A stretch of 43,187 nt of DNA from Sphingomicrobium sp. (GTDB lineage: Bacteria; Pseudomonadota; Alphaproteobacteria; Sphingomonadales; Sphingomonadaceae): the NCBI GenBank assembly GCA_036273235.1, contig DASUIB010000017.1:1-43187 (forward strand), read 5' to 3'. Every line of letters starts with the position of its first letter. The stretch's first letter is position 1. The notes below the pieces were generated by a model. That model made no database searches and was not told the origin of the DNA. It saw only the letters and a program-made list of their open reading frames with translations. The translations under genes and the position numbers were made by a program. This document shows, in pieces, positions 101-3,884 of this stretch.

Positions 101-649
101 CTAGACCATATGCTCCGAGTGACCGTAGACCAGGATGGTCATATAGCCGTCGCGCTCGGCTTCCTTGCGGGCCCCGCCGATGCTCGCCCGGAAGCGCTCG
201 GCCGAAGCGTCGTCGCAGCTATATTCGGGCCGCATGTCGCCCGAGGCCGAGACCACCCGGCAGTCCTTGACCGAGCCCTTGGGATCGATCGCCAGCGCCA
301 TCATCTCGCCGCCGAGCAGGGTGTCGCCGGGCTGGAGGTTCGGCTTGGCCGGGGCCGCGCCCGGATCGAAGCGCCGCTCGAAGGTGATTCGAGTCACCTC
401 GCCTTTCGACTCGGAAGCCTTGGTCGCCATCGCCGCCTGGTTCGACGAAACGTCGCAATCTTGGGCGTCGCCGGCCTTGAGGCTGGTCTCGTAGCGGCAG
501 GCCTGCGGCTTGCCGTCACCGTTCAGGGTGACCGTGATCCGCTCCCACCAGGGGGCATTGGAAACCAACGTCGAGGTTGTGCTCGCCGATGCGGCCGCGC
601 CGAGCGCGCCTGCCGCGGAAGCGAGAATGAGAGCGGCGATCTTGCGCAC
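101..649 (-). CDS. Secreted hypothetical protein; C-terminus resembles a TonB C-terminal fold
   Basis: GGAG RBS before GTG at 649; signal peptide MRKIAALILASAAGALGAAASA; segment LAIDPKGSVKDCRVVSASG resembles TonB_C. The longer ORF start at 922 is unlikely. Confidence 0.7.
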   Translation of the reverse strand: MRKIAALILASAAGALGAAASASTTSTLVSNAPWWERITVTLNGDGKPQACRYETSLKAGDAQDCDVSSNQAAMATKASESKGEVTRITFERRFDPGAAPAKPNLQPGDTLLGGEMMALAIDPKGSVKDCRVVSASGDMRPEYSCDDASAERFRASIGGARKEAERDGYMTILVYGHSEHMV

Positions 650-924: not shown

Positions 925-956
925 GAAATGGGGGCCGGCATTGCTGCCAGCCCCCA
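925..956 (-). terminator. 3' terminal hairpin/terminator of the candidate ncRNA
   Basis: TGGGGGCTGGCA-GCAA-TGCCGGCCCCCA (12 bp, one G-U) followed by a short TTTC tract. Confidence 0.65.
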
Positions 957-1452
957 CTGCGCCGAGCGAAGGATCTGCCGGTGTTCTTGGGCTTGGTCCA
1001 CTTCGGCCTTTCGGCCCAGCCTGACCCGCTCTCGATCCTGGCTCACCAGCTCAGGCGTCGCATTCCGCCGAACCGCTCCCTCTTGCGAGGAGCCCGACCG
1101 ACCTACTCGACTGCGCCGTCCCCGCCGAAGCGGGGATCACGCTGGTCTTTCGACCGTTCCGGCCCGGCGTCTGGGACCGAAATCCCTCGAAGCCAAAACC
1201 GTCCAGTGTTCCGCGGCCCTTCTTGGGTCGCCCCCTCTCGCGTCCCGCTTCGCTCACCGACGATCCGAAGACCGCCAGAAGCCGCGTCGCGCTCGAGAAA
1301 GACAACTCTTCCGGCGCCTCTTCCCGGCTGGCCCCGGCAAGAACCGAAGCTCTTCCCATTGCCTGCCGGCGGAGATCGGACCTTTGGCCACCTGCCGCAT
1401 CCTCGCGCCGTTTCCGACTCTTGGAGAGGCCGGGACCGCCGTCCCGATCACC
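925..1452 (-). ncRNA. Candidate large structured non-coding RNA of unknown family (~530 nt)
   Basis: Four UUCG- and five GNRA-capped hairpins on the minus strand, several needing G-U pairs that only form on that strand; CATGGT -10-like hexamer at 1458-1463; terminal GCAA-loop hairpin; no credible protein ORF. Confidence 0.7.
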
Positions 1453-1613: not shown

Positions 1614-3884
1614 GTGCCGCAATCCCCAGCTCTGACGAATAACCCGCCTTACCTTCAGGGACTCAACCCGCCGCAGCGGGAGGCGGTGCTGGCGACGGAA
1701 GGTCCCGTGTTGGTTCTCGCCGGCGCGGGCACCGGGAAGACCGCTGCGCTCACCGCTCGTCTCGCCCACCTGATCGCCACCGGCAGGGCATGGCCGAGCC
1801 AAATTCTCGCCGTCACCTTCACTAACAAGGCCGCTCGTCAGATGCGCGAACGGGTCGCCGCTTTGTCGGCCGGCGCGCTCGAGGGAATGCCTTGGCTCGG
1901 CACCTTCCATTCGGTCGCTGCGCGAATGCTCCGCAGCCATGCGGAACTGGTCGGACTTCAGTCCAATTTCACTATCCTCGACACCGACGACCAGCTTCGA
2001 GTCCTCAAGCAGCTTATCCAGGCGTCCAACCTCGACGAGAAGCGCTGGCCGGCCCGCCAGCTCGCCGGCCTCATCGATCGGTGGAAGAACCGCGGCTGGA
2101 CTCCGAAACAGGTCGACGCGGGCGAATCCGAAGCGTTCGCCGCCGGCCGGGGCGCGGAGCTTTACGCTCAGTACCAGGACCGGCTCAAAACCCTAAACGC
2201 GTGCGACTTCGGCGATCTCCTGCTCCATATGCTCGTGATCTTCCGCACCCATGCCGACGTGCTCGACGGCTACCGGAATCGCTTCCGCTACATCCTCGTC
2301 GACGAATATCAAGACACGAACCAGGCGCAGTACGAGTGGCTGAAACTGCTGGCCGAGCCGCGCCGCAACCTCTGCTGCGTCGGAGACGACGACCAGTCGA
2401 TCTATTCCTGGCGCGGCGCCGAGGTCGCCAATATCCTTCGTTTTGAGCACGATTTCCCCGGCGCCAAAATCGTACGTCTGGAACAGAATTATCGCTCGAC
2501 CTCGCACATACTCGCCGCCGCCGACGGGCTGATCGCCCACAATGCCGGACGGCTGGGGAAGACGCTCTGGACCGAAGCCGGCGACGGCGAAAAGGTTCGC
2601 GTGGTCGGAATCTGGGACGGCCCGGAAGAGGCACGTCGTGTCGGCGAAGATATCGAGCAGCTGCAGCGCAGGGGTCACAGCCTCGATGAAGCCGCAATCC
2701 TCGTTCGCGCCCAGTTCCAGACGCGCGAGTTCGAGGAGCGCTTCATCGCGATCGGCCTGGCTTATCAGATCATCGGCGGCTTCCGCTTCTACGAACGCGC
2801 CGAGATCCGCGACGCCATCGCTTACCTCCGTCTGATTCAATCGCCGGCGGACGACCTCGCGTTCGAGCGGATCGTCAACACGCCGAAGCGCGGCCTTGGC
2901 GACAAGGCGGTTGCGACCATGCACCGGCGCGCTCGCCATACGCAGCAGCCGATGCTCATCGCCGCGGCACACCTGCTCGACAGCGACGATCTCACGCCGC
3001 AGGCGCGCCGAAGCCTCGGCAATTTCGTCGGCGATCTCGCCCGCTGGCGTGAAATGGCGAGCACCCTCCCCCACCCCGAGCTCGCGCGGATCGTTCTCGA
3101 CGAGTCCGGCTATACCGCGATGCTGCAGGCGGACCGCTCGGCCGAAAGCGCCGGCCGTCTCGAGAACCTCTCCGAGCTCACGCGGGCGATGGAGGAGTAT
3201 GAATCGCTCGCCGCTTTCCTCGAGCACGTCAGCCTGGTGATGGACAATGATGAGGCGCGCGCCGGCGAAAAGGTCACGATCATGACCATTCATGCGGCGA
3301 AAGGCCTCGAGTTCGACACCGTCTTTCTGCCCGGTTGGGAAGAAGGCGTATTCCCTTCGCAACGCTCGCTTGATGAAGGCGGCCTCGCATCGCTCGAGGA
3401 GGAGCGCCGCCTCGCCTATGTCGCGATCACGCGCGCGCGCCGCCGCTGCACTATCCTCCACGCCGCCAATCGCCGAATCTACGGCCAATGGACCAGCTCG
3501 ATCCCGAGCCGCTTCCTCGCGGAGCTGCCGAAGGCGCATATCGAGGAAGAGACCACCATGACGGGCGGCGAGAGCCTGTGGCGCGCTCAATGGTCCGAGC
3601 GTTCGGACCCATTCGCGCACGTCGCCCGGCCGACCCGCGGTCCCGGTTGGCAGCGTGCCAGCCGCATCTCCTACAATCCGGAGCCGCCCCGGATCGTCGA
3701 AGCGCGCGCTTCAGCGGTGAGCCTCGGCAATCAGGGCCGTACCGACCTCGCGCTCGGCCAGCGCGTGTTCCACGGTAAGTTCGGCTACGGCACCATCGCC
3801 GCGATCGAGGGCAACAAGCTCGAAATCGACTTCGAGCACGGCGGCCGCAAGAAGGTGCTGGACAGCTTCGTCAGTGCGGGTTGA
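1614..3884 (+). CDS. uvrD: ATP-dependent DNA helicase UvrD/PcrA
   Basis: AGAGTGKT, TFTNKAA, LVDEYQDTN, VGDDDQSIY, LEQNYRS, TIHAAKGLEF, EERRLAYVAITRA motifs and a C-terminal Tudor-like RVFHGKFGYG; GTG start at 1614 inferred. Confidence 0.95.
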   Translation: MPQSPALTNNPPYLQGLNPPQREAVLATEGPVLVLAGAGTGKTAALTARLAHLIATGRAWPSQILAVTFTNKAARQMRERVAALSAGALEGMPWLGTFHSVAARMLRSHAELVGLQSNFTILDTDDQLRVLKQLIQASNLDEKRWPARQLAGLIDRWKNRGWTPKQVDAGESEAFAAGRGAELYAQYQDRLKTLNACDFGDLLLHMLVIFRTHADVLDGYRNRFRYILVDEYQDTNQAQYEWLKLLAEPRRNLCCVGDDDQSIYSWRGAEVANILRFEHDFPGAKIVRLEQNYRSTSHILAAADGLIAHNAGRLGKTLWTEAGDGEKVRVVGIWDGPEEARRVGEDIEQLQRRGHSLDEAAILVRAQFQTREFEERFIAIGLAYQIIGGFRFYERAEIRDAIAYLRLIQSPADDLAFERIVNTPKRGLGDKAVATMHRRARHTQQPMLIAAAHLLDSDDLTPQARRSLGNFVGDLARWREMASTLPHPELARIVLDESGYTAMLQADRSAESAGRLENLSELTRAMEEYESLAAFLEHVSLVMDNDEARAGEKVTIMTIHAAKGLEFDTVFLPGWEEGVFPSQRSLDEGGLASLEEERRLAYVAITRARRRCTILHAANRRIYGQWTSSIPSRFLAELPKAHIEEETTMTGGESLWRAQWSERSDPFAHVARPTRGPGWQRASRISYNPEPPRIVEARASAVSLGNQGRTDLALGQRVFHGKFGYGTIAAIEGNKLEIDFEHGGRKKVLDSFVSAG

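Follow-up and report, generated by a model that had tools for sequence, protein, structure and literature searches.

The question raised by this locus is whether the DNA beside uvrD in a Sphingomicrobium sp. contig encodes a structured RNA and, if so, of which class and with what function. In a sequence-only reading of the window, by which we mean the whole stretch of 43,187 nucleotides, positions 925 to 1452 had been taken for a stand-alone RNA on the minus strand, divergent from uvrD and of no recognized family. The minus strand at 1452–925 carries a stand-alone non-coding RNA gene, equipped with a conserved promoter and a terminator of its own, and the product of this gene is almost certainly a real structured RNA. 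The gene body (925–1452) is ~528 nt long, with the 5′ end inferred at G1452/G1451 and the 3′ end at ~927–925. In same-genus homologs, conservation begins abruptly at GTGATCGG, 6–7 nt downstream of the -10 element, and ends at CCCCCATTTC. The gene is single-copy, the best non-self match in a similarity search of the assembly having an E-value of 0.002.

All nine UUCG- and GNRA-capped hairpins of that first reading are found where it had placed them, and so are the G-U pairs which it had read in five of the stems. Between 925 and 1452, nine such capped stems of at least 4 bp occur on the minus strand and none on the plus strand. The background is a mean of 0.45 per 530-nt window over 18,066 tiled genome windows (both strands); the sole two windows scoring 7 overlap the RNA locus and the next best scores 5, in an assembly which is 87% complete and from which rRNA may be missing. 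The minus strand folds at -270.4 kcal/mol (z = -2.89), a value equalled by 0 of 100 shuffles, and the plus strand at -220.2 kcal/mol (z = -1.91). The hairpin at 1119–1136 exists as claimed but is an 11-nt expansion private to this genome among 49 aligned sequences. From its resemblance to palindromes elsewhere in the genome, at C152:9-49 and C19:9744-9784 (80% over 41 nt), the expansion at 1107–1147 is perhaps a REP-like insertion.

Within the genus, blastn matches with E ≤ 3e-22, full-length or strong, have been obtained in 30 of 36 genomes; three of the remaining genomes have short matches and three, which are 73–77% complete, have none. The titles of the named records with this RNA type are mostly Sphingomicrobium sp. 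The 57 distinct sequences that carry all anchor motifs range from 355 to 646 nt, and uvrD is also present at 53 of these loci. Pairs were counted in 49 of the 57 sequences, eight mostly divergent or near-duplicate ones having been omitted by hand. One sequence (L022, genome G020) is an unpublished record, and no claim rests solely on it. Covariation among these homologs supports the fold. A 93-pair model is paired in 95.3% of cells, compared with 28–44% in slid-alignment controls, and double-sided changes are seen in 33 of the 93 pairs against 17.2 ± 2.0 in shuffles, a control which is blind to relatedness and is applied to a model drawn from the same 49 sequences. Many arm-base pairs are invariant and contribute no covariation evidence. 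In an unbiased MI-APC scan, the top two pairs both fall in the stem of arm 3 and are both 100% paired. Two loci (L030 and L036) have a partial second copy of the terminal hairpin downstream of the terminator.

The model describes five arms joined by linkers of 0–4 nt and followed by a terminal hairpin, all on the minus strand. Arm 1 (1371–1452, helices 1–4) is closed by GG/CC and by the GAUCGG/CCGAUC pairing noticed from the start, which 49 of 49 aligned homologs keep unchanged; the arm has purine-rich internal loops and a GNRA tip. Arm 2 (1324–1369, helices 5–6) has the base CCGGC/GCCGG and a variable UUCG tip. Arm 3 (1215–1318, helices 7–13) has an invariant base, GAGGCGCCGGAAGAG / CCAAGAAGGGCCG, and A-rich bulges, and its stem 1306–1300/1233–1227 shows the strongest covariation. 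Arm 4 (1060–1214, helices 14–15) starts with GC/GC, followed by a purine-rich internal loop that is mostly GGAA/GGAA-like; its distal part is branched and variable in length. Arm 5 (960–1057, helices 16–19) has the base CGCC(U)GAGC/GCUCGGCG and a variable tip. In general, the arm bases are invariant in the genus and bear A-rich bulges or GA-rich internal loops, while the tips vary greatly in length and are capped by UUCG or GNRA. The terminal element (925–956) consists of a 12-bp GNRA hairpin (956–929) and a short AUUUC tail and is likely an intrinsic terminator. The sequence-only reading had recognized the structured RNA itself, and it lacked the five-arm layout, the DnaA-box/CGACTC promoter and the family-wide spread described below.

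The homologs have no shared reading frame, as the spacings between anchor motifs are spread evenly over all three frames in the 57 sequences. Only five stop-free sense-strand frames exist in total across these sequences. This bears on the possibility that the stretch serves the downstream gene as a 5′ leader or cis-regulator, or is the mRNA of a poorly conserved small protein. The downstream ORF here does lie on the same strand, and chance ORFs of up to 172 aa occur in some bodies. However, the downstream genes vary and are often on the opposite strand, the anchor spacings are independent of frame, and the RNA contigs end at the terminator, so that this explanation is extremely improbable and largely refuted. 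The downstream ORF (101–646, minus strand, 181 aa) has no Pfam match and is 49–74% identical by tblastn at 11 relatives' loci; it is probably merely a neighbour. It begins with a signal-peptide-like stretch and is located 3′ of the RNA in many same-genus genomes.

Part of the RNA stretch is present, at small word shares, in 21 RNA runs from soil, rhizosphere and compost. Seven RNA runs from six studies, selected for containing this stretch, and run X23, whose kind is unrecorded and which is DNA-like, have been compared by contigs. The contigs come from relatives (80–99% alike) and their depth is summed over many strains; the depths therefore speak for presence and rough limits and not for strand or level. 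In four runs (X1, X5, X11 and X17), the summed contig depth is 8.8e3–2.2e5 over 911–1430 and 0.85–85 in the bin 1431–1560, which contains the 5′ end. Outside 911–1560, uvrD included, it is at most 66 in X1, 0 in X5 and X11, and at most 21 in X17. In three further studies the contigs span ~924–1469 only, and in X23 they run on into both flanks.

In run X21, one contig (depth 156.5, with 40 letters on the short side) joins 927 to 1446, that is, the 3′ end to the 5′ end. This junction may reflect a circular form or a template switch, and it fits the predicted RNA ends whether or not there is a circle. Template switching on an abundant RNA yields the same junction picture as a circle. A search for the junction pattern in JGI metagenome contigs gave nine matches, which are chance genomic sequence after the hairpin; being a DNA collection, it has no bearing on a circle. 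A catalytic or self-circularising RNA, either a ribozyme or a domesticated circular element, would agree with this contig and with the A-rich hub, which is invariant in the genus. Against it, the junction occurs in one contig of one of the seven RNA runs, among the joints listed, the hub sequence is lost across genera, and there is no Rfam ribozyme match. Such an activity is most unlikely.

The divergent gene (1656–3884, plus strand) is a uvrD homolog (Pfam UvrD-helicase, E 9e-90; UvrD_C, E 1.5e-67) whose true start is slightly upstream, and it is outside the RNA system. Homologs had been expected upstream of uvrD across the Sphingomonadales, but beyond the genus none of 29 uvrD-upstream regions of other genera contains the RNA. 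Because of this, and because the neighbours are not the same from one genus to the next (nadA, argG together with a lytic transglycosylase and a glycine-zipper gene are among them), the link between uvrD and the RNA is incidental, and uvrD adjoins the RNA only within this genus. Among 81 flanking ORFs from 38 loci and the window, no conserved neighbour gene and no reverse transcriptase has been found. By eye, a GAAC-N7-GAAC element, which we take to be a LexA-type motif, precedes uvrD in most of the 29 other genera, and a version with one mismatch lies at 1573–1587 in the window. At two Sphingobium loci (L133 and L172), a tRNA gene on the strand opposite to the RNA is located ~45–50 nt past the terminator.

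Beyond the genus, the RNA has been traced by its two ends. A covariance model of the 3′ part matches in 86 of 150 family genomes, and a DnaA-type box lies 369–795 nt upstream in 28 of the 29 best loci. Among 58 further matches inspected, 34 have the 3′ context of the family; 27 of these carry the full promoter pattern and three more have DnaA boxes. Overall, of 149 other Sphingomonadaceae genomes at least 58 have the RNA gene, marked by the same 3′ hairpin 300–850 nt downstream of clustered DnaA boxes, mostly accompanied by a CGACTC site of the CcrM/GcrA type; the count is a lower bound. In the other 91, two complete low-GC genomes (G092 and G196) among them, the gene was not found with a 3′ model whose training sequences came from one genus, and it may therefore be dispensable. 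A pattern scan of GTDB contigs yields at least 120 loci (about 470 estimated), with titles that include Sphingomicrobium, Sphingopyxis, Sphingobium, Allosphingosinicella, Sphingomonas, Novosphingobium and Sandarakinorhabdus. The sphingomonad hairpin is also seen in records titled Pyrinomonadaceae and Bacillota (L140 and L216), which are probably binning contamination.

The body of the RNA differs completely in sequence between genera, and the hub sequence is not kept. Between genera, homology rests on the promoter, on the RTCG/GTGG start at the 5′ end, on some short motifs and on the terminator, while the bodies are not alignable. In 90 bodies (12 loci were left out as their start was not parsed), the length is 304–794 nt, with 58% purine and 13.5% U; one additional locus has a body of ~800 nt. 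By blastn these bodies sort into 28 separate clusters, and the representative of every cluster folds better than its shuffles (z -1.9 to -10.2, eight shuffles each). The loops predicted in the representatives are chiefly GCAA, GAAA, UUCG and GCGA, A makes up 47% of the unpaired bases, and CGGA occurs in all 28 (215 observed versus 123 expected). The terminator-like end stem that had been pointed out is among the best-supported elements: across 42 family members, 99.2% of its cells are paired and 11 of its 12 pairs show double-sided change. RNAalifold returns five arms and a terminator for both the argG-linked type (25 sequences, 87 of 131 pairs double-changed) and the Sphingopyxis type (14 sequences, 41 of 134 pairs). 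A model of the Allosphingosinicella type (eight sequences) has more than five hairpin domains in another top-level layout, and five arms are therefore not universal.

The RNA gene was not found outside the Sphingomonadaceae among the genomes searched, where a first-look filter and the fast divergence limit sensitivity. The promoter model gave three and eight extra-family matches in 150 order-level and 150 class-level genomes, none with a hairpin downstream. The hairpin model gave 27 matches in 40 genomes, 24 of which belong to other families; the single true member, L316, is in-family, and the other 26 look like ordinary terminators. The pattern CGACGCCTGAKCTGGT, allowing one mismatch, matched 96 of 301 family genomes, and the 30 loci tested scored at most 9.7 bits with the profile, which we treat as noise. 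Neither 50,697 phage records nor 72,556 plasmid records contain a match. Three IMG/VR contigs (L285–L287) carry the gene or its 3′ part, and L285, given its chromosomal uvrD context, is likely host DNA.

The promoter is one of the features that these divergent genes share. The CATGGT hexamer that had been read at 1458–1463 is the -10 element (family pattern nAnnnT), and TTTCCC occupies the -35 position at 1481–1486 (family cTTg). CGACTCG at 1475–1481, a CcrM-type GANTC site, lies ~28 nt above the inferred start. Further upstream, at 1509–1535, there are three abutting 9-bp elements, TTGTGCCCG, ATATCCCCG and TTATCCACA, which we take to be DnaA-type boxes; by this motif reading, and by inspection, they form the sole such triple among the 17 TTATCCAC[AC] sites of the assembly. 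All of these elements are on the minus strand. A generic promoter and terminator scan makes no call at the RNA locus, the promoter being of an alphaproteobacterial type and the U tail being short.

In other genera, two direct DnaA-type boxes and one inverted box are found. Setting aside 43 of the 120 GTDB-scan loci for which the upstream DNA is too short, 73 of 77 have a DnaA-type box 380–850 nt upstream of the hairpin; a similar box pattern occurs in 45 of 4,748 background 1-kb windows. GANTC is present in 61 of the 73 box-bearing loci and missing in 12, mostly from Sphingopyxis. With the promoter model alone, all nine family loci scanned carry the hairpin downstream on the same strand. In the 90 bodies, GANTC is located at -28/-27 in 56 and is absent in 15, and it reads CGACTCG or CGAATCG in 58. 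The reverse complement of CGACTCG fits the GcrA consensus YGAKTCK (PMC4647560), and each of the five genomes tested has gcrA as well as an N6/N4 methyltransferase. The CcrM/GcrA-type promoter motifs have been taken from PMC3708114 and PMC4647560. With the motifs given in these two sources and in PMC4287350, the layout is of the ftsZ/mipZ type, in which CGACTC is placed between the -35 and the -10 and a DnaA box stands further upstream; in podJ P2, GANTC is at -24 and the DnaA motif at -82 (PMC4287350). Judged from these motifs, control of the RNA gene by DnaA is probable, and control by GcrA and CcrM is somewhat more likely to operate than not to. The same tandem box motif has been observed directly upstream of dnaB (G500/L305 and G582/L309) and gapR (G491/L306) in other alphaproteobacteria.

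A cluster of DnaA boxes can also have a role as DNA. Loci such as datA and DARS regulate DnaA away from the origin, and the locus could be of this kind; the RNA would then be a by-product, folded merely to avert R-loops or translation. In favour of this possibility, no feature is better conserved than the cluster of two or three DnaA boxes, and the locus lies 0.76–1.03 Mb from hemE in five complete genomes, hemE flanking an origin-like cluster in G092. However, compensatory changes over 500 nt and a kept arm layout exceed what a by-product needs, and elsewhere, in front of dnaB and gapR, the same box motif acts as an ordinary promoter element. This explanation is very unlikely. With the distance of 0.76–1.03 Mb from hemE in the five complete genomes, the RNA locus is distinct from the chromosomal origin. 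The dense cluster of DnaA boxes and GANTC sites in G092 (L257:1380-1650, upstream of hemE) is probably the origin itself; it came from a pattern search of five genomes that lack a 3′-model match and was set aside on inspection as origin-like and not RNA.

The RNA has been compared with known classes through Rfam 15. In the window segment 1–3000, five matches at E ≤ 10 are found, all far below gathering scores, the best being RsmY (E 0.98, 15.6 bits against a gathering score of 57). In 20 family loci the RNA is unmatched and only two flanking tRNAs are found. The proposal of a stand-alone minus-strand structured RNA outside Rfam is thus upheld by the covariation, the lack of a reading frame, the sharp conserved ends and the confinement of the RNA contigs. 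The exclusion of RNase P, tmRNA and group II introns also holds. RNase P RNA (C227, RF00010, 275.7 bits) and the alpha two-piece tmRNA (C178, RF01849, 215.8 bits) have their genes at other sites of this genome, and no group I or II intron core is matched in the window segment 1–3000 or the 20 family loci. SRP RNA (RF00169) is at C192 here and is elsewhere than the RNA locus in five of five genomes. For 6S RNA (RF00013), the present assembly, 87% complete, gave no match, and four of five relatives have it at other places; it is a rod of about 190 nt, whereas the RNA here is multi-armed. RNase P, tmRNA, SRP and 6S RNAs resemble the present RNA in being abundant, stable, single-copy structured RNAs.

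CsrB, RsmY and RsmZ are protein-sponge RNAs with repeated GGA in hairpin loops. The RNA here resembles them as a stand-alone, hairpin- and purine-rich, fast-diverging RNA with many GGA triplets (ANGGA 4.4 per RNA). On the other hand, the GGA here is not in hairpin loops, which are predicted to be GCAA, GAAA, UUCG or GCGA, the arms are long and irregular instead of short stem-loops, and the promoter is of the DnaA/GANTC type. CsrA/RsmA (PF02599) was found in none of five genomes tested, in which control searches were positive. Hfq sponges of the CrcZ type have repeated single-stranded AAnAAnAA or (ARN)n tracts, but these tracts are scarce here, at 0.04 and 0.1 per RNA in the 90 bodies.

A trans-acting base-pairing sRNA, or an Hfq-type sponge, that controls cell-cycle mRNAs would account for a gene with its own promoter and an intrinsic-type terminator. 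Hfq and the Hfq-dependent SuhB act in Sphingopyxis granuli (10.64898/2025.12.09.693200), and Caulobacter has cell-cycle sRNAs (PMC4287350, PMC5988900). However, the invariant blocks of the present RNA pair internally, it is U-poor (13.5%), the rest of the genome offers no long match to it (best non-self E-value 0.002), and no seed is shared across genera, which makes such an sRNA unlikely. SuhB is a separate, characterised sRNA. Caulobacter CcnA (CCNA_R0094, 182 nt, from the origin) is likewise an alphaproteobacterial ncRNA tied to cell-cycle regulators (PMC4287350, PMC8959179), but the present RNA is 0.76–1.03 Mb from hemE, 2–4 times longer and without a sign of base-pairing targets. Zymomonas Zms6 has been considered and set aside, as the accessible text gives no locus or sequence that links it to the gene, which was not found in two low-GC family genomes.

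ROOL, GOLLD and OLE RNAs invite a further comparison, in which the RNA would be a protein-free, self-assembling particle that forms an oligomer or condensate through intermolecular A-minor contacts. These families, which we take to be included in Rfam 15, have no match in the window segment 1–3000 or the 20 family loci. The size (300–850 nt), the many GNRA loops, the A-rich unpaired bases, the high apparent abundance and the absence of a partner gene nearby all suit such a particle; ROOL and GOLLD use A-minor contacts, and ROOL is sometimes very abundant (PMC12286853). On the other side, no pseudoknot or kissing-loop pair is found among the top 40 MI-APC pairs, at an effective depth of 35 and with an invariant hub, and the tips are closed UUCG/GNRA loops of variable length. 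In addition, ROOL and GOLLD are linked to phages and tRNA islands, whereas this gene, unmatched in the phage and plasmid records, is chromosomal, single-copy and found in one family, and its sequence turns over between genera. A particle of this kind is a possible but doubtful reading. As for E. coli, the naRNA4/REP325 nucleoid RNA binds HU. Its run of hairpins, proposed to act via a nucleoid protein (PMC4550694), is similar to the arms here, but naRNA4 derives from repeated palindromes, and the arms of the present RNA are not repeats of one another, its promoter is a dedicated one of the replication type, and it is conserved across the family.

In the full-text literature no description of this RNA has been found, though supplements and subscription papers might list it as an unnamed candidate. 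The main text of two ncRNA discovery papers holds no such Sphingomonadales motif. The S. granuli TFA dRNA-seq sRNA list could likewise include the locus as an unnamed candidate. The RNA is apparently a new, undescribed class of large RNA. Shape and regulation are kept and sequence is not, which would explain its absence from Rfam and from similarity screens. The novelty concerns the RNA class; the mechanism may be of a known sort, such as a sponge or scaffold.

Taking these observations together, we propose that the RNA is an abundant, replication-coupled, multivalent protein-binding RNA which acts as a scaffold or decoy for a nucleic-acid-binding protein, a reading to which we give a probability of roughly 0.45. 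The odds that it acts as a protein scaffold or decoy at all are about even, and the predicted partner is most plausibly a nucleoid or replication-cycle protein. The sequence-only reading had offered a ribozyme or an RNP scaffold; the scaffold is the part that we prefer, and the ribozyme is disfavoured because only short motifs beyond the terminator persist across genera. In the proposed mechanism, DnaA bound at about -85 to -57 and GcrA bound at methylated CGACTC at about -28 would activate a sigma-70 promoter, in an arrangement likened to that of Caulobacter ftsZ, mipZ and podJ. Synthesis would therefore be tied to replication initiation, with the GcrA/CcrM input expected in most genera. The UUCG and GNRA caps and the closed ends would stabilise the RNA, which would therefore accumulate even where soil cells grow slowly. 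With their A-rich bulges and GA-rich internal loops, the conserved bases of the arms would pack into a hub, and the arms would display recurring purine-rich internal loops (CGGA/GGAA) to bind several copies of one protein. Recognition by the protein would be of shape and not of sequence, and such multivalent, shape-read binding would explain why the number of arms is kept while the sequence is free. The scaffold reading also accounts for the absence of a partner gene and for the company that the promoter motif keeps elsewhere (dnaB and gapR).

In its boldest and more tentative form, the proposal is that this RNA defines a core bacterial RNP class: it would be among the most abundant stable RNAs of soil sphingomonads, directly controlled by DnaA, with a five-arm shape that is kept while its sequence is rewritten in each genus, and it would organise or titrate a nucleoid or replication protein, maybe as a closed circle. 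In metatranscriptomes of soil and rhizosphere, the RNA apparently forms a deep signal that is unannotated. Bacteria have few large structured RNAs, and most of the known ones without an assigned function come from phages or hard-to-grow hosts. The RNA described here is chromosomal and single-copy in a large culturable family, so its function is directly testable in tractable strains, and its readable promoter ties it to the DnaA-GcrA-CcrM cell-cycle circuit.
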